Both the position numbers and the translations under genes were made by a program. A stretch of DNA of 32,000 nt from Dickeya dadantii NCPPB 898 (GTDB lineage Bacteria > Pseudomonadota > Gammaproteobacteria > Enterobacterales > Enterobacteriaceae): contig NZ_CM001976.1 in the NCBI RefSeq assembly GCF_000406145.1, positions 4,641,577 through 4,673,576 of the forward strand, given 5' to 3'. The notes below the pieces were generated by a model. That model worked only from the letters and a program-made list of their open reading frames with translations. It did not search any database and had not been told where the DNA came from. This document shows positions 3,969-13,500 of this stretch, in pieces (the stretch's first letter is position 1; every line of letters starts with the position of its first letter).

Positions 3969-4676
3969 TTATACCGCCTGACGTAATTGTCCGTTTTCGC
4001 CATCAGCCACCACCTGCCCGTCAGAAAGCACAATGGTGCGCTGAGCGCGCATGGCGGAACGCGGATCATGGGTAACGATGCAGATGGTCGCGCCGTCCTG
4101 ATGCAGTTCATCCAGAATATTCATCACCGCTTCGGCGTTGGCGGAATCCAGATTTCCGGTCGGTTCGTCCGCCAGCAGCAACGACGGCTTGCCGACAATC
4201 GCCCGCGCCACCGCCACCCGCTGTTGTTGACCGCCGGAAAGCTGTGACGGGTAGTGGCGCACCCGATGCGACATGTTGACTTTTTCCAGCGCCTGAATGA
4301 CCCGCGCTTTCTGCTCCGAGCGCGACAGGTCATTGCGGTAAGTGAGCGGCAACGCCACGTTTTCCGCGATAGTCAGGTCGCTTATCAGATTAAATGACTG
4401 AAAGATAAAGCCAATTTCCCGGTTGCGCAGGCGGGCCATCTCCCGGCGGCCGATACGTTCTACATCCGCGCCGTTCAGCCGGTAGCGCCCTTCCGTTGGC
4501 GTGTCCAGTAGGCCCATGATGGACAGCAGCGTCGATTTCCCACAACCGGACGGTCCCGCGATAGAGACGTATTCTCCCGAGTGAATAGAAAGGTTTATCT
4601 TGCTAAGGGCATGCGTTTCAATTTCATCGGTAAGAAAGATTTTATGCACATTATCAAGTTGAACCAGCACCGTCAT
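3969..4676 (-). CDS. vfmF: ABC transporter ATP-binding protein (MacB/LolD-like)
   Basis: The 235-aa ORF has Walker A GPSGCGKST, signature LSGGQQQRVAVARA, Walker B LLLADEPTGNLD and H-loop VTHD. SD GAGGA lies upstream of the ATG (ctGAGGAtttcccATG on the minus strand). Confidence 0.9.
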   Translation of the reverse strand: MTVLVQLDNVHKIFLTDEIETHALSKINLSIHSGEYVSIAGPSGCGKSTLLSIMGLLDTPTEGRYRLNGADVERIGRREMARLRNREIGFIFQSFNLISDLTIAENVALPLTYRNDLSRSEQKARVIQALEKVNMSHRVRHYPSQLSGGQQQRVAVARAIVGKPSLLLADEPTGNLDSANAEAVMNILDELHQDGATICIVTHDPRSAMRAQRTIVLSDGQVVADGENGQLRQAV

Positions 4677-5074
4677 GGGAAATCCTCAGTGTATAAATAG
4701 AGTCAGCCTTCCTGAGGCCGAGGGTATCTTACAGGCTGCAGACCACGCACTTTTATCTCTGGTTTTAAAAATGTGCCCAAAATACCTCCACCCGTCCATG
4801 ACGACGCCCCTTTCCTTGCGCTGACTGGCCCTTCCGCTGACAGGCTCTCCAGGTCGTTTCCTGTTCATCTGCGTCAGACAGCACGCACACGGTCTTCACG
4901 AACATCGGTTTCGCGTCTTCTGATCACAGCACAAATCATACCAATTACGTCCTGATCGCAGCCGACGACCCGCTCGCCGGGCAGAAGCAGCCTCCGGCAG
5001 CCGATGCGCACGTCAGCACGGTGCGCCGGCTCGTGGCAGGGTAGCGTATCCGGCTCGTCATTTGCGAGACGAAA

Positions 5075-5112
5075 AATCCCATGTTTGGCACGACACGATC
5101 CCATTAATGGGA
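5075..5112 (+). promoter_or_regulatory. Candidate vfm box / enhancer: AATCCCATGTTT, then ATCCCATT 22 bp downstream, inside the perfect palindrome TCCCATTAATGGGA
   Basis: Read directly: 5075-5086 AATCCCATGTTT, 5098-5105 ATCCCATT, 5099-5112 TCCCATTAATGGGA (a 14-bp perfect palindrome). It lies about 60-90 bp upstream of the sigma54 -24 element. The same 12-mer and spacing recur upstream of vfmA. Confidence 0.4.
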
Positions 5113-5164
5113 CGAGTTACAGGTAGGTGTAAGTATTTCCCTTTAAAAACAACCCCTCACAACA

Positions 5165-5180
5165 TGGCACACAATTTGCG
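5165..5180 (+). promoter_or_regulatory. sigma54 (RpoN) -24/-12 promoter for vfmE
   Basis: TGGCAC(5165-5170)-acaat-TTGCG(5176-5180) matches TGGCAC-N5-TTGC exactly with canonical GG..GC spacing. It sits about 120 nt upstream of the vfmE ATG. A sigma54 activator (vfmH) is encoded in the divergent operon. Confidence 0.7.
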
Positions 5181-5298
5181 TTAGACAGATCGCACATCGG
5201 ACCAAAGGACAATAATTAACCTCAGACTTCGCCGCTGTAAGGATTTTTGGATTTAGCTGGACCAGACACGGGGAATCTATTTTTTTTGGGATGACACC

Positions 5299-5862
5299 AT
5301 GAGCTTGCAGAACACCTACGCCCATACGTTGGATAATGATATTTTCAACAACAATCTGATTCAGGATATGTACCGCCGTCACCCTAATCTGCGCAAAACG
5401 CTTGCAGCAAATAATAAAGCGACCAGCCTGGCGGGAATTATTGACTATATCATCGACAACATCGGTAACAATATTACGCTGGAAGATCTTGAAGACGTCA
5501 GCGGTAAATCAAAGTTTGATATTTGCCGTCTTTTCAATCAGGTCTATAACATTACGCCGATGCGCTGGATTTGGCGCGTACGCCTGACGCTGGCAAAAGA
5601 GATCATTCAGATTTCGCCCAACTGGTCGCTCACCGATATTTGCTACGCCTGTGGCTTTTCCTCGCTACCGCATTTTTCCCGTTGTTTTACCAAGACCTAC
5701 AACATTCCGCCGCTGAAGTACCGCAAAGCAGTCTCGCAGGAACGGGAAAACGAACCGCCCCGCACCATGCAAAACATGAGCTTCGATATTATTTTCGGCA
5801 AACAGCGTCATCTGTTCTCACGTCACGTGCTGCTGGATAATATCCAGAACCTCTGTAATTAA
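5299..5862 (+). CDS. vfmE: small AraC/XylS-family transcriptional regulator (187 aa, no ligand domain)
   Basis: The ORF carries an AraC dual HTH: ...ITLEDLEDVSGKSKFDICRLFNQVYNITPMRWIWRVRLTLAKEII...SLTDICYACGFSSLPHFSRCFTKTYNIPPLKYRK. Only about 55 aa precede it. GC is low (about 40%). The symbol comes from remembered vfm locus order. Confidence 0.85.
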   Translation: MSLQNTYAHTLDNDIFNNNLIQDMYRRHPNLRKTLAANNKATSLAGIIDYIIDNIGNNITLEDLEDVSGKSKFDICRLFNQVYNITPMRWIWRVRLTLAKEIIQISPNWSLTDICYACGFSSLPHFSRCFTKTYNIPPLKYRKAVSQERENEPPRTMQNMSFDIIFGKQRHLFSRHVLLDNIQNLCN

Positions 5863-5869
5863 ATACCGT

Positions 5870-5894
5870 CGCCCGCCGTCGCCGATGGCGGGCG
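5870..5894. terminator. GC-rich hairpin between the convergent vfmE and vfmD genes
   Basis: CGCCCGCC (5870-5877) pairs with GGCGGGCG (5887-5894) around a 9-nt loop. There is no clear U-tract on either side. Confidence 0.35.
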
Positions 5895-5924
5895 CACCAG
5901 ATGCGTCAACGCCCGGCGGTAATA

Positions 5925-7013
5925 TCATGTCCGCTTTGATGCCGTCGGCATCGGACCGTACCGCGACGGATCCGCGTCATCAGGCATTGTCGAATACTGA
6001 ATAAGTGGCGGTATCGGCCTTTCAGTTCCCACTTCAGCATCAGATAAAAACGACAGAATGCGCTGGTGTACCAGGGGGCTGCGTAAAATCCCCAGATGGC
6101 CCAGCCCGCGGGTATAGAACACATCGCTACGGGCAAACGCCCGGTGGATTTCATCCGCCACCGCCGGATGGACACGAACATCCTGCCAGTCATGGCAAAT
6201 CAGCGCCGGACAATCGAGCATGCGATAGAGCGTTTCGCCGACCTGATCGGGATGAAAGCCAAAGCGCTGTGCATAAATCGCTTTCATGGGCGCCGCCAGC
6301 GACGCCGACACCGACGCGCCGGCCAGAAATCGGTCGATCATTTTGCCGAAGTTATCGGGGCTGGCCAGCAGCACCAGCCGCTCCGCCGCCAGTCCCTGCG
6401 CCAGCGCCAGGCTACACACCAGACCGCCGCTGGAATGCCCGACCACCGCATAGAACGGGCCGTAGCGCTGCCCCAGCCGGATAAGCAGACTGGCCAACTC
6501 ATAGTTGGACACCCGCTTTCCGTCAGACAGCCCGTGTGCCAGCAGATCCGGCATCACCACGCCGTACCCCTGCGCTTTTAGCGCCTCGCACAGCGGCCGG
6601 AACATAATGCCGCGGCCCTCCCAGCCATGCACCAGCAACACGTTTTTTGCCGGCGCGTCCGCGGGCGGCGGCACCCAGCGAAACACATACACGTTCTGGT
6701 GCTGAAAACAGACCGTCTCCTGTCGAAAATCGGCCAGATAGTCGTGGTCCATCTGCTTGTAAGAGATATAACGTGTGGTTTCAAACAGATGTAGCAGATA
6801 GCGCGCCGCCAGATGCAGGGAACAACGCTCCAGCAACCACAAATCCGCCAGACGCAGCGCGCGGCACAGCCGGATGTAATGCGTTTCCGGCTTGATCCGC
6901 ACTTTAAGCAGCAGCGACGGGCGGCGCTTGAGCTTCACCAGCGCGCGGTAGTAGTTGTACTGGACGAGGGTCGCCAGCCACATCAAGGGGTAGCATAGGC
7001 TATACAGCAGCAT
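5925..7013 (-). CDS. vfmD: alpha/beta-hydrolase fold protein (362 aa) with a ~110-aa N-terminal extension
   Basis: It has the oxyanion motif LLVHGWEGRG, the nucleophile elbow VVGHSSGG (GxSxG) and a late GLGHLG histidine. The hydrophobic N-terminus is MLLYSLCYPLMWLATLV. Its start overlaps the vfmC stop by 14 nt. Confidence 0.8.
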   Translation of the reverse strand: MLLYSLCYPLMWLATLVQYNYYRALVKLKRRPSLLLKVRIKPETHYIRLCRALRLADLWLLERCSLHLAARYLLHLFETTRYISYKQMDHDYLADFRQETVCFQHQNVYVFRWVPPPADAPAKNVLLVHGWEGRGIMFRPLCEALKAQGYGVVMPDLLAHGLSDGKRVSNYELASLLIRLGQRYGPFYAVVGHSSGGLVCSLALAQGLAAERLVLLASPDNFGKMIDRFLAGASVSASLAAPMKAIYAQRFGFHPDQVGETLYRMLDCPALICHDWQDVRVHPAVADEIHRAFARSDVFYTRGLGHLGILRSPLVHQRILSFLSDAEVGTERPIPPLIQYSTMPDDADPSRYGPMPTASKRT

Positions 7014-8355
7014 CCCGTTCTCCCAGCGCGCAGGCTAGCAACCGGTACTCACGCAGGAACACCACGGCGTACAGCAGGCTGAACGTCACCATCAGACCGG
7101 CGATCGCCTGCACGTCGTTAAAGTAGCGATGGGCGGTCAGCGCGACCGCCACCATCAGCAGTTCCAGCATCAGCGTGAAAATAAGCACCCGTTTTCCCCG
7201 CTCCATTTGTTCCAGCAGCGTTTGCAGCGCCGCCACCAGCGAGGTAAGGAAGAAAGTCGGCAGCAACAACAACAGCAGCGTCTGGCTGGATTGACGGATC
7301 GCCTCGTCATTGGAAAAACCGGCCAGAATACCGTCGCGCAGCCAGCATACGCCGGCGGTGAGCGCCAGATAGGTCAGCGCGATAAGCCACACGCCATTAT
7401 TCAGCAGGCTCGCCAGCAACGGCGCGGCATGGGTTTTGCGGCGCTGGTTTAGCAGAATAGCGATGGCGGAACCGGTCGCCACCGCCGGAATGATGAAGAA
7501 AGCCCGCAGCTTTATCACGATCAGGAACGCGGGCAAAAATCCCGCCCCCAGCGCGGCCACCAGTGGAAAAATCACCATCGAACTGACGAACACCACCAGC
7601 ATGGAAAAGCCTACCGGCAAGCCGGCGTTGGTCAGCAACGCCAGCAGACGAGACGCGAACGCCTGCGGCCGTTCATCCGCCACCGGTGTGGCGACCCGGC
7701 GCAGCGCCCGCACCGCCAACGGCAGCAGCATCAGCGCCGGAACGCTGTTTGCCAGCAGCACGGCATCAAAACCAAGCCGGTAGACGTGAAAACCCAGGTA
7801 GCAACCCGCGGCGTTCAGCAGCACATAGCCACACATCAGCGTCATGGCCGGCACGGTTCTCCCCTGTCCGCGCAGCGCCGCGTTGCACATTTCCAGCGCC
7901 AGAAACGGCGTCATCGACAACAGATAGCCGGGCGCGGCGTTCTGCATCCACGCCAGATCCGGGCTGTTCATCCAGCCGGACAGCGGCGATGCCAGTACGC
8001 GGCACAACAGCGCCGCCAGCGCCGTCGTCAACACGCCGGCGCCCCCAAGCCACAGCGTACTGTGCCAGATGCGCTGTCGCGGCCAGTCATGACGGGAGCG
8101 GGCGCTAAACACCTGATTGGTGATCGCCAGACATTCCAGAATGGCGATAAACAGGAAGTTAAACGGCTGCAAAAAGGAGAGCGTCAGCAACGTCTGGCTT
8201 TCGGCGCCGTTGCCCAGAATCGCAATCTGCATATTCTGAGACAACGACACCACCACCGCGGTCACCATCATCGGCCAGGCTAACGCCATGATCTGCCGCA
8301 TATCCCCACTCACAGCCGGGGCGGCTCTGGACATCACACGCGAGATCAGGCTCAT
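7000..8355 (-). CDS. vfmC: polytopic membrane exporter, MATE/MOP-superfamily-like (451 aa)
   Basis: The product is hydrophobic throughout, with about 12 predicted TM stretches by eye, and has a MATE-like N-terminus (...IMALAWPMMVTAVVVSLSQ...). I prefer the ATG at 8355 (SD AAGGA 10 nt upstream, 22 nt after the vfmB stop) over the track start at 8409, which overlaps vfmB. Confidence 0.7.
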   Translation of the reverse strand: MSLISRVMSRAAPAVSGDMRQIMALAWPMMVTAVVVSLSQNMQIAILGNGAESQTLLTLSFLQPFNFLFIAILECLAITNQVFSARSRHDWPRQRIWHSTLWLGGAGVLTTALAALLCRVLASPLSGWMNSPDLAWMQNAAPGYLLSMTPFLALEMCNAALRGQGRTVPAMTLMCGYVLLNAAGCYLGFHVYRLGFDAVLLANSVPALMLLPLAVRALRRVATPVADERPQAFASRLLALLTNAGLPVGFSMLVVFVSSMVIFPLVAALGAGFLPAFLIVIKLRAFFIIPAVATGSAIAILLNQRRKTHAAPLLASLLNNGVWLIALTYLALTAGVCWLRDGILAGFSNDEAIRQSSQTLLLLLLPTFFLTSLVAALQTLLEQMERGKRVLIFTLMLELLMVAVALTAHRYFNDVQAIAGLMVTFSLLYAVVFLREYRLLACALGERDAAV

Positions 8356-8377
8356 CGTCCCTATCCTTTTCCGTAAT

Positions 8378-8989
8378 TCAGGCCGCCGCCAGACAACTCG
8401 CCTTGCCATAGACGCTGTAGAGCATCATGGAGAAGTAGGACAGGCTATGGGTATTGCCCAGCAGGAAACCGTGTCCGCCCATCATCTTTTCCGCTTCATT
8501 GTTAAGCTGAGTGATCTGGTAGTGATCATCCTCCAGACCAGCCAGGTCGCCTTCCTGCAAGCGCAGATACTGTTGCTCCAGCAGCAGCGCCGCCTTGCCG
8601 GCCACGTCGGCGAAACTGGCTTTGATCAACTGATGACGGGTGGTTTTGGTGCCGAAGCTGTTGCGGCTGGACAGATGCTGCCAGCTCATGGTCTGTATAC
8701 GGGCCAGCACGCCCAGACGGGCGGCGCACACCAGTATCGGGAAACTGGCCGGCAGCACCAACGTATCCGTACCGCGCACCGCATCCAGACCGAGGTGATT
8801 CAGCACCCGGTCAAACAGGCGCTGTGGCTGGTCGGCGTCAGGCAGGCTGCTGATTTCCTGAATCTGATACCCAATCGGGTGAATGTATCGCGCTTCTCCC
8901 GACGGCGATTGCAACAGACAGGCCAGCGCATCGGGCAACGGCTGCTCCCGAAAGACGTCCCAGACTTGCTTGATGCGCTCAACTGACAT
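8378..8989 (-). CDS. vfmB: hypothetical protein (203 aa), no motif I can assign
   Basis: The ORF sits in the operon frame. I prefer the start MSVERIKQVW at 8989, which overlaps the vfmZ stop (ATGTCAGTTGA). The track start is 9010. The symbol comes from remembered vfmAZBCD order. Confidence 0.65.
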   Translation of the reverse strand: MSVERIKQVWDVFREQPLPDALACLLQSPSGEARYIHPIGYQIQEISSLPDADQPQRLFDRVLNHLGLDAVRGTDTLVLPASFPILVCAARLGVLARIQTMSWQHLSSRNSFGTKTTRHQLIKASFADVAGKAALLLEQQYLRLQEGDLAGLEDDHYQITQLNNEAEKMMGGHGFLLGNTHSLSYFSMMLYSVYGKASCLAAA

Positions 8990-9245
8990 GCCGCACCTCC
9001 TGCAACACATTGTCGTTCAGCCAGCTAATCAGGCTGCCCACGGTGGTGAAGGCATCCATGTTGATTTGGTCAGGATCGAACAGCAGCCCGTCGATGCTAT
9101 CTTCAAGCGTCAGCAAAAATTGCACGAACATCACCGAGTCCAGGTCGAGGTCATGATCAAAATCCGTTTTTTCATTGATCTTGATGTCGTCATTCTCCAT
9201 GACTTCGCGTAACGCCTGTTGAATAGTGATTAATAACGCAGACAT
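8979..9245 (-). CDS. vfmZ: stand-alone acyl/peptidyl carrier protein (88 aa)
   Basis: It has the carrier-protein motif DHDLDLDSVMFVQFL, with Ser as the phosphopantetheine site. The preferred ATG at 9245 is preceded by AGGAGA and lies 13 nt after the vfmA stop. The track start is 9269. Confidence 0.8.
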   Translation of the reverse strand: MSALLITIQQALREVMENDDIKINEKTDFDHDLDLDSVMFVQFLLTLEDSIDGLLFDPDQINMDAFTTVGSLISWLNDNVLQEVRHVS

Positions 9246-9258
9246 GTCTGTCTCCTGT

Positions 9259-10191
9259 TTAAATATCAATTTGCTGTATCAGCGCGCAGGAAAGCGTGAC
9301 CCCCATTCCCATCGAAAAACAAAAATAATTTTTCGCGCGACCGGTTGTAGTTTTCATTAGTGAAGAAAAATTAAATAAAACGTCCGAACAATACAGATGC
9401 CCATAATCAGAAACCTGCTGACTGAATAAGCGATCGCCCATATTCAGACGTTGCGCCATCTGACGTAATAATGGGAAATTAAGATTGCAGGGGACAAAAT
9501 AATCCACCTCATCCATGCCTATGCCGCTGTCCCCGACGGCATCGACAATAAAACGGCACAGTTCATCCAGCAGGCAGCCGTTCAATTCCGCTTTTTCCTG
9601 CCGGGTCATATTGCTCGGATTGTTATAAAAACGGCTCAGGTGCCTGACCGCCGTAAACGTCACCCGCCAGCGACTGTTCGCCGCATTGAAGAGCGCCGCC
9701 ACCGGCAGTTCTCCCTGTACGCCGACCGTGAAGCGGTTGATTTCAGGGTGAAACGCCTTCTCTCCCGTCAACAACAGCACCGGCTGGTTCCGTCGAACCG
9801 CGCTATGCCGCACCAGATGCAACGCCGACAGCGCGCCGGCACAGTGATTCAGCCCCAACGTCGTGACGTCCCAGCGCCCCAGCCGCTGGCGATGCAGGAT
9901 GTCGTCCAGCCAGCGGCGGTCAAAGAAGGTGTTGTGCGTCTGCGTCCTGGCATAGATCAGCAGCCCCTCCTGAGAAGGCAGCATCGGCCAGCTATCAACC
10001 AGCCCCGCCACCACCGACTCCAGCATCGCCTGATGGCAATCGGAGCGCATCGGCACCGTCTTCAGTTGATACAGCTTTTCCATCATGCGGCGCTGCCCTT
10101 CCCGCAGCCGATGCGAGTCCCCCAGTTCTCCCAGGGGAAAACGCCGGATGTGTTCCGGCGCTTCATGATGAATGTCATTAAGGCAAAACAT
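9259..10191 (-). CDS. vfmA: KAS III (FabH)-like thiolase-fold enzyme with a divergent active site; the start is ambiguous (10191 preferred, the open frame extends to GTG 10317)
   Basis: By eye it aligns to FabH: LGLNHCAGALSAL matches the Cys motif AACAGF. VDYFVPCNLNFPLL sits at the PHQAN position and SDYGHLYCSD at the GNTSAAS position. The ATG at 10191 has SD GGAGA 6-7 nt upstream. Upstream in-frame starts lack an SD and run through a 9-bp repeat. Confidence 0.75.
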   Translation of the reverse strand: MFCLNDIHHEAPEHIRRFPLGELGDSHRLREGQRRMMEKLYQLKTVPMRSDCHQAMLESVVAGLVDSWPMLPSQEGLLIYARTQTHNTFFDRRWLDDILHRQRLGRWDVTTLGLNHCAGALSALHLVRHSAVRRNQPVLLLTGEKAFHPEINRFTVGVQGELPVAALFNAANSRWRVTFTAVRHLSRFYNNPSNMTRQEKAELNGCLLDELCRFIVDAVGDSGIGMDEVDYFVPCNLNFPLLRQMAQRLNMGDRLFSQQVSDYGHLYCSDVLFNFSSLMKTTTGRAKNYFCFSMGMGVTLSCALIQQIDI

Positions 10192-10240
10192 GCCGGTCTC
10201 CGATGAAGCTCGCACGGTTACCGTCCCCATGTCGCACAAA

Positions 10241-10290
10241 ACGCTCATGACGCTCATGACGCTCATGACGCTCATGACGCTCATGACGCT
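10241..10290. repeat. 9-bp tandem repeat (ACGCTCATG) x5.5
   Basis: Read directly from lines 10241-10290. On the minus strand it reads (ATGAGCGTC)n, encoding MSV repeats in frame with vfmA. Each unit contains the palindrome TCATGA. Confidence 0.95.
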
Positions 10291-10431
10291 AATAGTGAAG
10301 CTATGTCGCAGCAACACCGTTCATGACCCATGATCGAACGCAGTCAATCTACAGACACTTTGCCAAAAAACGAGTTTTGTTTTTATCCGCAGTTGCCGCC
10401 GCCTTGTTTTCAGAACGCTTTTATCTCAAAA

Positions 10432-10503
10432 ATGGGATTAATGCGCTAAAACATGGGATTGTGTCGACAAAACAGCAAAAAAATCGGTTTGATAATGGGA
10501 CGA
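10432..10503 (-). promoter_or_regulatory. Candidate vfm box upstream of vfmA: phased ATGGGA(T/C) motifs at 10432, 10453 and 10495
   Basis: The minus strand reads AATCCCATGTTT (10461-10450) and AATCCCATT (10440-10432), 21 bp apart. TAATGGGACGA (10493-10503) is identical to 5105-5115 and lies a further 42 bp away. Confidence 0.4.
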
Positions 10504-10504
10504 C

Positions 10505-10537
10505 GCAGAAAAGCGCGCGGGGCATCCCCCGCGCGCG
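10505..10537 (-). terminator. Rho-independent terminator of indC
   Basis: A perfect 10-bp stem, GCGCGCGGGG (10513-10522) with CCCCGCGCGC (10527-10536), has a 4-nt loop. It is followed on the minus strand by CTTTTCTG. It lies 15 nt after the indC stop. Confidence 0.75.
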
Positions 10538-10551
10538 TTATGCCGACAGTC

Positions 10552-13500
10552 TCATCCCACCAGGCTGGGAGGTGATTGTTGATACTGGATGACGCTAGTC
10601 AGTTCGTCGATCCCTGGCGCTTTCAGCATGCTGTAGTGATCCGCCATCAGCTCCAGCACCGTGGGCGGCTGGGCGGAAAACCCGCCGTGATTCTCAATAA
10701 ACGAGTAATCATCGCCCTGCGCCTTGATGATGGTTACCGGCGCATTCAGTTGCCGCTGCTGTAGCTCGCTGAAGGTATAGGTGAACTCGAAGGTTTGCGC
10801 CACAATGCGGGTGATCCGCCGTACCAGCCCGTCATCCAGCGCCGGGTTGAGCCCGGTGATAAAGGCCACAAAGCTCCCCTCGTCGCGTACCGTTTCCAGA
10901 CAGCGCTCCAGTTCCGGGTCGGTAATACTGCCGATAAATACCGAGAACAGGATGGTCAAATAACCGGGGTTATCAAAATCCGCCTTACGGTTCATGGCGG
11001 CCACCCGCTCATCGCGCAGTTTCGGCGAACCGGGCGCCAACAGGTACAAGTTTTCCACCACCTCGCCCGCCAGCTCCAGTTGCCAGGCGGTTTCGAACGC
11101 GACGCGCGCGCCGAAAGAGTAGCCCCACAGCGTATAAGGCCCGTGCGGCTGGTGCTGGCGAATTAGCTCAATATCTCTGGCCGCCATCTCGCCGATGGTG
11201 GCGTAAGGCGTCTCGTCCGGATTGATGCCGTGCGCCTGAATGCCAAAGAATGGTCGCTCCGCGCCCAGTTGGCGCGCCAGCAGCCGCAGGTTCATGCAGT
11301 AACCGCCCAGACCCGGCCAGCAGTAGATTGGCGCCTGACGCCCTTTGGGCTGCAACTGAACCAGACGGGACACCGGTTCCTGACGCGCGCGGCTCAGCCA
11401 CGCCGCCAGTTTTTCAACGGTGGGCGCCTGAAACAGCACCTGCAGCGGCAGGCTGGCGTTCAGCGTCGCATTCAGCTCATTGATCAGGCTGACGGCGATC
11501 AGCGAGTTACCGCCCGATTCGAAGAAATTGTCATCCACCGACATCTCCTCGCGTTTCAGTTTCGCCTGCCAGATAGCCATGACCTGATGTTCCAATGGGT
11601 TACGGGGCGCGACGATCGTTTTGTGCTTCAGTTCGACATTAATATTCGCCAGCGCTTTCATGTCGATTTTGCCGTTTGCCGTTAGCGGCATCTCATCAAG
11701 AATCAGCACTTTGTTCGGCATCATGTAATCCGGCATGAACGCCGCCAGGTCGTCACGAATCATCTCCGCCGGCCCTTTCATGTGCACGGCGTCTTCCCTC
11801 ATGCCCTCGCTGTATTTCTGCTCGTCGCTGATGCGCCCGCCAATAAAGAAATAATATGGCCCGGTACGATGACCGAGAATCTGCCAGAAGCGGCGGGCGG
11901 CGGGTAGATCGTTGCCGGTTTCCGAGCTGTAACCGGAAGACATCAGCCCGATATTCAGGGGGTTCATCTGCAAGCGCTGCAGTTTACGCCCCACATGCAC
12001 GTACCCGGCCCAGCCTTCGGTCCGACTGGCGACGCTGATGCCGAACGACGAGCGCTCATACACCGCCTGATTGATGGCGATAACATGTTTCTTATCAATG
12101 ACGTCATCGGCAATGTGCTGCAGGTCGCCGCGAACGTAGCGGTACGTTCCAACCGGCAGGTCGGCGATGTTCGTACCGGCGGTCTGCACGTAAATATCCA
12201 GATCGTCATCCGCCGGCAAACGCGGCCCGGACAGCACATCGCAGGCACCCAGATAGTCATCGTCCGGGTTAATGGCCAGCGGCGTCGGATCCAGCGCCGC
12301 GGCGTCGCACAGCGCCACGCCCAGGCCATAATCCGGCAGGATGATATCCAGCATGCCGATGATGTGCCCCATCTCCATTTGCAACACTTCCCGAATGTTA
12401 TTTTTGTAGATGGGTTCAATCGCGCTCTTCTTGCCGACAAAGTGTAGCCGCAGGCTGCCCGGCGTCACCGCTGCCTGCTCGCTGACCCGCACCAGTTGGT
12501 GATGCACCGGCTGATAATAGTAATGCCCGGCGGTCAGCCCGGCCACGCCGTTCAGTTCCAGAAAAACCTGGGTGGCATACAGCGCGCCCGGCGAAGCGTA
12601 GGTATATTTGGGCAGCAGCCGCTCCGCGCTGGTGAACTGGCCCAGATAACGCAGCCAGTGCCCCAGTTCATCCAGCGTCAGAGCATCCGGCCGGCGCGAA
12701 ATGGCCGTCAGCAGCGGCTCATGCAGCAGCGACAGAATATCGTCACGGCTCACGGCGCCGCCGTCGTAAAACCGATAGGTCTTGCGGGAAAACGCGGTGA
12801 GGCGCTGTTTCTCATCCGGCTGCTTGCCCGGCAAATCGAGGGTATACGGCTGGCTGGCGGCCGGAAACTCCCGGCAGCCTTTATTCGCCAGCTGCAACAT
12901 CACCTGTGCCTTATCGGCTTTGGACTGATGGTGTGAACCGTGATTGCCCTGATCCATCAGCGCCGCTTCGCGGGCATTCAGTTCAATAAACGAAATCAGG
13001 TTCTGATAGCCGGTAAACGGATCGTTCCTGACGATCACCGCCGCCGCTTTCACCCACTCATGGGTTTCTATCGCCGAGCGGATCTCATCCAGCTCGACGC
13101 GATAACCGCGCAGCTTGACCTGATTGTCGGCACGGCCGGCGTACTGGACCGTGCCATCGGGATTCCAGCTGGCGATATCGCCGGTCTGGTACAAACGCCG
13201 CCCGGAGCCGGCCGGCGCGAACGGATCGACGATGAAACGCTCGGCGGTCAGGTCATCACGATTCAGATAGCCTCTCGCCACCCCGTCGCCGCCGATATAC
13301 AGCTCCCCGATTTGCCCGACGGCGACCGGCGTCAGGCAGTTATCCAGTATGTAATAACGGGTATTCGCCACCGGCGCGCCGATGGACAGCGTATCCGGCC
13401 CCTGCCGCACGCTGACTGGGTCAACCCGGAAAGCGGAACTGTTGATGGTGCATTCGGTCGGGCCGTACAAATTAATGAGTTCGCAATCGGGCAGCGTCTC

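Follow-up and report, generated by a model that had tools for sequence, protein, structure and literature searches.

The vfm locus of Dickeya dadantii carries short repeated sequences upstream of two of its genes, vfmE and vfmA, and the question that they raise is what kind of element they form and which of two regulators, VfmH or the AraC-type VfmE, binds it. In Dickeya, Vfm quorum sensing acts as the principal switch of soft-rot virulence. [quoted passage not shown] Binding of VfmH to vfmE and vfmA promoter fragments has therefore already been reported; leaving aside the primary binding paper (Nasser 2013), we found no description in the literature of the VfmH operator, of a sigma-54 promoter at vfmE or of conservation beyond Dickeya.

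Pfam matches and a published primer (PMC9306890), which matches positions 4851-4875, identify the window (the whole 32-kb stretch of DNA analyzed here) as the D. dadantii vfm locus on the strain 3937 map. From left to right it contains vfmG and vfmF (- strand), vfmE (+), and vfmD, vfmC, vfmB, vfmZ and vfmA (-), followed beyond vfmA by indC, indB, indA, pecM, pecS and argG in that order; vfmH, vfmI and vfmJ lie directly to the left of the window. Because of this gene order, the second copy of the box falls in the 234-bp gap between the indC terminator hairpin and vfmA. Window positions were converted to the genome coordinates of the published start-site map by adding 4730022. The vfmE start site is rated "strong", that is, supported by both dRNA-seq and RNA-seq in strain 3937 (PMC9239193); the mapped vfmF start site corresponds to window position 4700. 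Feature coordinates are collected in Table 1.

Table 1. Features of the vfmE and vfmA upstream regions (window coordinates)
Feature	Position	Strand	Remarks
vfmE, AraC-family regulator, 187 aa	5299-5862	+	Pfam HTH_18, HTH_AraC
vfmE transcription start site, published	5192 (genome 4735214)	+	dRNA-seq and RNA-seq, PMC9239193 Table S1A
Sigma-54 promoter TGGCACacaatTTGC	5165-5179	+	Sole zero-mismatch consensus match in the window
Third conserved block TATTTCCCTTTAAAAACAA	5134-5152	+	Between enhancer sites and promoter; kept in Dickeya, Lonsdalea and CE70
Core VfmH-type dyad (predicted) TCCCATTAATGGGA	5099-5112	.	Perfect 14-bp palindrome; centre at -61 relative to the -24 GG and at -86.5 relative to the start site
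Auxiliary site TCCCATGTTTGGCA	5077-5090	+	Strong in its left half and weak in its right; precedes the core dyad by 22 bp
Conserved block TCATTTGCGAGACGAAA	5058-5074	+	Adjoins the auxiliary site upstream; candidate site for VfmE or another factor
vfmA transcription start site, published	10328 (genome 4740350)	-	Published start-site map
Site c TCCCATTTTTGAGA	10424-10437	-	One mismatch to the dyad; kept in four Dickeya species
Site b TCCCATGTTTTAGC	10445-10458	-	Half-site only; 21 bp upstream of site c; carries the second 12-mer
Site a TCCCATTATCAAAC	10487-10500	-	Half-site, + strand TAATGGGACGA; 42 bp upstream of site b; core GTCCC(A/G) conserved
indC terminator hairpin	10513-10536		

A sequence-only reading of this DNA had described a shared box built around a 12-mer, and its string coordinates were all correct on recheck. 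The 12-mer, AATCCCATGTTT, occurs at 5075-5086 (+) and 10449-10460 (-), in the same orientation relative to vfmE and vfmA; the second motif described 21 bp from the vfmA copy is confirmed as the one-mismatch version AATCCCATTTTT at 10428-10439 (-). Upstream of vfmE, ATCCCATT (5098-5105) follows 22 bp past the first AATCCCATGTTT. An 11-bp repeat, TAATGGGACGA, links 5105-5115 with 10493-10503, on the + strand both times, again as described. Allowing one mismatch, the 12-mer has 3 matches in the 32-kb window against 0.10 expected, a number reached in none of 100 shuffles. All four ATCCCAT heptamers of the window fall in the vfmE and vfmA intergenic regions; their total is as expected, but their placement is not. 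The motif TCCCA-N4-TGGGA, matched with at most one mismatch, occurs 3 times in the 32-kb window (0.83 expected), each time within the 856 bp of the vfmE and vfmA intergenic regions (Poisson P ~2e-6). Exact identity of the 12-mer and the 11-mer is restricted to D. dadantii, and other Dickeya species keep only the core (A/T)ATCCCA and YGGGAC. The functional unit is the 14-bp dyad TCCCA-N4-TGGGA plus lone TCCCA half-sites, rather than the 12-mer; the shared box of the sequence-only reading gives way to a predicted recognition unit consisting of a 5-4-5 dyad or a TCCCA half-site.

The promoter that the palindrome faces is of the -24/-12 type. TGGCACacaatTTGC has an approximate position-weight score of 15.2, and transcription from 5192 places its GC at -14/-13 and its GG at -26/-25, a spacing that fits a sigma-54 promoter. 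A sigma-70 scan of the vfmE and vfmA intergenic regions returned no consensus-like promoter, and a sigma-54 promoter was found upstream of every vfmE homologue retrieved. The -24 element that had been proposed is thus real, being part of a perfectly conserved sigma-54 promoter that fits the published start site, and the palindrome does lie at enhancer distance from it, with its centre (5105.5) 61 bp from the GG at 5166-5167. With the auxiliary site, which includes most of the 12-mer at 5075-5086, the palindrome forms a pair spaced by 22 bp and centred at -86.5 and -108.5 relative to the start site. The AATCCCA of the auxiliary site does not vary within Dickeya and Lonsdalea. This site is found at -83 from the GG in three of the four core Dickeya species (the Dickeya species other than D. 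poaceiphila); in D. oryzae its right half falls under the 2-mismatch cut-off, with AATCCCA still in place, and D. chrysanthemi has an additional possible site at -104 from the GG. An RNA element or hairpin was considered for the palindrome and rejected: an Rfam search of 4600-10700 gave no match, and the palindrome precedes the start site and lacks a T-run.

Aligning the vfmE upstream regions of three Dickeya and five Lonsdalea genomes reveals conserved islands at TT-CGAGACGA--AATCCCA, at ATCCCAwwAATGGrA, at a TyTCCC...AAAA block and at the sigma-54 promoter. TT-CGAGACGA is invariant in Dickeya and Lonsdalea, and TTTTCGAGAC is also found in Pseudomonas. GAGACGAAAA (5066-5075, +) is similar to the GAGATAAAAG box, which occurs exactly twice in the window (4750-4759 and 10418-10427, both -), in the sense direction each time, one copy 50-59 bp ahead of the vfmF start site and the other 90-99 bp ahead of that of vfmA; GAGACGAAAAG is found upstream of vfmA in D. 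oryzae and D. chrysanthemi. GAGATAAAAG/GAGACGAAAA is a candidate VfmE box. The block TATTTCCCTTTAAAAACAA could represent a half-site, an A-tract bend or an IHF-like core. TAAAAACAA occurs in the window only at 5144-5152 (+) and 10377-10385 (-), in the sense direction both times (-48 to -40 of vfmE; -57 to -49 of vfmA), and could represent an IHF-like core or belong to a VfmE site. In D. zeae, IHF is required for vfmE expression and IhfA binds the promoter, with a predicted IHF site within the 5' untranslated region (PMC9452768); Fis as well as IHF has been reported on the vfmE promoter. By-eye reading of both strands of 5113-5164 showed no match to the IHF consensus WATCAANNNNTTR.

On the vfmF side of the same intergenic region, a sigma-54-like element, TGGTATgatttGTGCT (4928-4943, -), points to vfmF; in four Dickeya species it stands out as a conserved island amid variable DNA, and the vfmE dyads are 142 and 164 bp upstream of it. 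The published start-site supplement contains no start site near 4917 for this element, which may be a relic of a second (divergent) promoter.

Upstream of vfmA, sites a, b and c are centred 165.5, 123.5 and 102.5 bp from the start site. No sigma-54 promoter was found upstream of vfmA in any of eight lineages; GG-N10-GC scores are at most 6.7, and none of these sequences is conserved. One sequence, TGGCAAagtgtCTGT (10365-10351), was rejected as a vfmA sigma-54 promoter, having a good -24, no GC at -12, no conservation and a position ~12 nt off the start site. A conserved TTGGCA at -38 to -33 of the start site looks, by its sequence, like a -35 element. Since there is no vfmA sigma-54 promoter, the canonical mechanism cannot explain the vfmA copy of the box, and the NtrC-type enhancer logic of the sequence-only reading is demonstrable for vfmE only.

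The 5' end of vfmA has features of its own. A perfect 9-bp tandem repeat, ACGCTCATG x 5.6 (10241-10290), reads on the coding strand as in-frame ATG-AGC-GTC units; it is much shorter or missing in other Dickeya species, so the start codon and N terminus of vfmA are variable. A 7-codon reading frame, ATGAACGGTGTTGCTGCGACATAG (10301-10324, -), starts 4 nt past the mapped vfmA start site and is kept in D. dadantii and D. undicola.

Dyads with at most one mismatch are found only upstream of vfmE and vfmA, both in the 32-kb window and in the complete 38-kb cluster of a Rahnella plasmid. There is no TCCCA near the vfmF start site, and the promoter of the large biosynthetic operon of Rahnella lacks even a half-site. 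The 927-bp vfmK promoter region of one core Dickeya contains no dyad; five sense-strand (T/C)ATCCC motifs are present in the 150 bp upstream of vfmK, again without a dyad (locus positions 1643-1777, +, in Dickeya sp. NCPPB 3274), a count that 0 of 500 shuffles reach. A separate string, GTGCAATTTCAArCAAA, a further candidate for a VfmE or promoter element, is common to the large-operon promoter regions of Dickeya (locus positions ~1912-1930) and Rahnella (locus positions ~4600-4620); it is similar to the GCAAyTk...AAAA blocks found ahead of vfmA.

Clusters resembling vfm are also present in Pseudomonas spp., Rahnella (on a megaplasmid of ~0.5 Mb), Sodalis ligni, Pantoea sp. and, in part, Serratia microhaemolytica. 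They comprise vfmJ-I-H-G-F, an additional hlyD-like gene, vfmE, vfmD-C-B-Z-A and a large biosynthetic operon; together with D. poaceiphila, these lineages form what we call group 2. VfmE homologues in the syntenic clusters of Pseudomonas, Rahnella, Sodalis and Pantoea are 43-51% identical, and vfmH is in the cluster in both Dickeya and group 2. The group-2 upstream regions are unalignable with those of Dickeya yet contain the same dyad (for example TCCCATTAATGGGA, TCCCAAAAATGGGA and TCCCATTAGCGGGA). An unbiased count over the 180 bp that precede these sigma-54 promoters in 12 lineages returned TCCCA/TGGGA as the top-enriched pentamer (38 occurrences against 3.0 expected, in 12 of 12 lineages) and TCCCA-N4-TGGGA as the sole recurrent perfect palindrome, in 8 of the 12. 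The motif is therefore conserved in orthologous vfm promoters within Dickeya and beyond the genus, as far as Pseudomonas, which supports the earlier suggestion that its recurrence is functional. This conservation effectively refutes the idea of a chance or historical repeat, such as duplicated intergenic DNA, without a regulatory role: the exact 12-mer and 11-mer identities confined to D. dadantii speak for it, but the preservation of motif and promoter spacing from Dickeya to Pseudomonas in unalignable DNA and the enrichment of 12-mer, pentamer and dyad leave it a negligible probability.

The position of the dyad is as regular as its sequence. Allowing one mismatch, its centre lies at exactly -61 from the GG in all Dickeya (except the group-2 D. 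poaceiphila), in Lonsdalea and in Pectobacteriaceae bacterium CE70. Group-2 dyads are centred at -119 to -124 in 7 of 7 lineages, with additional dyads at -80 to -82 in 4 of the 7, at -57 to -59 in 2 and, weakly, at -199 to -205 in 3. Sites are separated by steps of about 21, 42 or 81 bp and hence lie on one face of the helix. Between the vfmE dyad and its promoter lies an A-tract, TTTAAAAACAA; at the equivalent place group 2 has AAACAA-N4-TTA. In group 2 there is, in addition, a second and divergent sigma-54 promoter, TGGCAY-N5-kTGCW (score 13.8-17.2), directed toward the hlyD-like/vfmFGHIJ operon, and the weak distal dyad is 93-95 bp from it. Sigma-54 activators classically have such an arrangement, in which palindromic sites form a central array flanked by two divergent sigma-54 promoters. 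As one of the divergent promoters serves the vfmFGHIJ operon, VfmH is probably autoregulated there. S. microhaemolytica has lost vfmE and kept vfmH, together with the sigma-54 promoter of its operon and a perfect dyad.

Lonsdalea and CE70 present a different arrangement, with vfmE beside argG, a sigma-54 promoter and the dyad at -61, and without vfmG, vfmH, vfmI or vfmD-A nearby. No sigma-54 activator is encoded within 10 kb, and a protein search returned no VfmH orthologue; the 88% match belongs to Musicola. These look like "VfmE solo" genomes.

VfmH itself has receiver, Sigma54_activat (AAA+) and HTH_8 domains and is NtrC-type by Pfam and PDB comparison, with LuxO among its relatives of solved structure. 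Across the genera with the dyad, its HTH helix, SRSAFYRRLEK, does not vary; the HTH regions of VfmE are as conserved, so helix conservation does not discriminate between the two proteins. All VfmH orthologues examined carry GAFTDA in place of GAFTGA, yet adjoin conserved sigma-54 promoters. A 2023 study (PMC10714721) reported c-di-GMP binding by VfmH, did not detect RpoN in a pull-down and left open whether a GAFTDA VfmH works with sigma-54. We found no link between rpoN and vfmE expression in the literature.

Taken together, these data make it likely that the box is a VfmH enhancer (UAS) of the sigma-54 promoter of vfmE, with related sites upstream of vfmA, and that the dyad would be the sequence contacted by VfmH; the AraC-type VfmE is an unlikely binder. 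VfmH is favored because the distribution of the dyad matches the promoters reported to be bound by VfmH (PMC7912708), because a compact, symmetric 5-4-5 dyad suits a Fis-type HTH dimer, because the position of the dyad is coupled to sigma-54 promoters, and because S. microhaemolytica keeps dyad and vfmH without vfmE. The region upstream of vfmE has a -24/-12 promoter with transcription starting at about the expected distance (12 nt) past the GC, phased dyads and a cognate activator encoded in the locus, all expected of such an enhancer, and the need of vfmE for IHF in D. zeae is consistent with looping at a sigma-54 promoter. No promoter of this type is present downstream of the vfmA sites. 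Against a VfmH enhancer stand this lack of a vfmA sigma-54 promoter in any lineage, the box and promoter of Lonsdalea and CE70 without a detectable vfmH, the dyad-free ATCCC array of vfmK, where VfmE and not VfmH is reported, and the GAFTDA motif, with RpoN not recovered in the pull-down.

In the mechanism that we propose, VfmH dimers would recognize the 14-bp TCCCA-N4-TGGGA and would also use half-sites 21-22 bp (two helical turns) away on the same face of the DNA. Occupied sites at -86.5 and -108.5 would nucleate an active VfmH oligomer, which DNA looping, favored by the A-tract and probably assisted by IHF, would bring to the sigma-54 RNA polymerase at TGGCAC-N5-TTGC; ATP hydrolysis would then open the promoter for transcription of vfmE. 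At vfmA, VfmH would have to act otherwise, for example as FleQ or VpsR do, on a sigma-70 promoter, or together with VfmE.

An alternative is that VfmE binds ATCCCA(T) as direct repeats two helical turns apart, in the manner of araI1-I2, autoactivating vfmE and activating vfmA. The half-sites of core Dickeya are indeed directly repeated, with a spacing of 21-22 bp, and read in the sense direction of the gene that follows, the HTH regions of VfmE are conserved across the genera that share the motif, and Lonsdalea and CE70 have VfmE and the box with no detectable VfmH. The sense-strand ATCCC array upstream of vfmK, a promoter reportedly bound by VfmE, keeps alive a role for VfmE on half-sites. 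However, the unit shared across genera is a symmetric 5-4-5 dyad, ill-suited to the two dissimilar HTHs of an AraC protein, and it occurs in S. microhaemolytica without vfmE. Site centres lie 86-165 bp upstream of the start sites rather than beside the -35 (-35 to -80), no common second box accompanies the half-sites, and there is no such site near the vfmF start or at the Rahnella large operon, though VfmE is said to bind all vfm operons. The asymmetric 17-20 bp site, adjacency to the -35 and presence at all reported VfmE promoters that characterize AraC/XylS operators were thus not found, and we consider binding by VfmE improbable. The sequence-only reading had left the choice between the two regulators open; the ambiguity is largely resolved for VfmH, and the direct-repeat, AraC-like appearance on which the case for VfmE drew is limited to core Dickeya.

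We give an equally low probability to shared or overlapping targets, in which VfmH would occupy full dyads and a second protein (VfmE, another sigma-54 activator, Fis or CRP) half-sites or adjacent blocks, so that the promoters would integrate two inputs. VfmH and VfmE are both reported on both promoters, and Fis and IHF on that of vfmE; GAGATAAAAG/GAGACGAAAA and TAAAAACAA adjoin the dyads, and Lonsdalea and CE70 need an activator other than VfmH. Against this, there is no sequence evidence that requires a second protein on TCCCA itself, and the other shared elements are separable from the dyads.

Returning to the VfmH enhancer, a broader proposal can be made only tentatively: VfmH would be a natural GAFTDA sigma-54 activator with two modes from one operator, sigma-54-dependent at vfmE and, in the wider family, at the divergent promoter of its own operon, and sigma-54-independent at vfmA (as for FleQ and VpsR), and the enhancer with its transporter/kinase/VfmH/VfmE core would be an old mobile signaling module. 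The vfm system has been called Dickeya-specific in several publications; as the module is common to Pseudomonas, Rahnella, Pantoea, Sodalis and Serratia, it is not. The promoter, start site and phased dyads offer a testable answer to the question of a GAFTDA VfmH and sigma-54, and the exact bases to mutate are identified for the widely used vfmE reporter strains. The dyad combined with -24/-12 also provides a search pattern for the VfmH regulon and for vfm-like systems elsewhere.

As a type of element, the vfm box would be an ordinary enhancer for a sigma-54 activator. The arrangement resembles that of NtrC (GlnG) at glnAp2: a response-regulator sigma-54 activator with a Fis-type HTH, dyads phased on one face ~80-150 bp upstream of a -24/-12 promoter, and strong sites combined with weak ones. 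It differs in the dyad, which is TGCACC-N5-GGTGCA (17 bp) for NtrC against TCCCA-N4-TGGGA (14 bp) here, in the GAFTDA rather than GAFTGA of VfmH, and in having a target, vfmA, without a sigma-54 promoter. The LuxO/qrr system of Vibrio has the same logic, a quorum-sensing phosphorelay leading to a sigma-54 activator and on to the sigma-54 promoter of a downstream regulator gene; LuxO, however, is active at low cell density and targets small RNAs, whereas VfmH is presumably activated by the signal and has as its target the gene of an AraC regulator. To our knowledge, the operator sequences of LuxO and VfmH are unrelated.

The FleQ box of Pseudomonas aeruginosa is GTCaNTAAAtTGAC. FleQ shares with VfmH a 5-4-5 dyad with an A/T-rich spacer and c-di-GMP binding, as reported for VfmH (PMC10714721), and by acting at sigma-54 flagellar and sigma-70 pel/psl promoters it offers a precedent for the vfmA copy; it differs in its half-site sequence, in lacking a phosphorylatable receiver domain and in working with FleN. 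The araI1-I2 sites of AraC are alike in that their repeats have a 21-bp spacing and point the same way relative to the gene, but these are 17-bp asymmetric half-sites abutting the -35, whereas the vfm unit is a palindrome far upstream.
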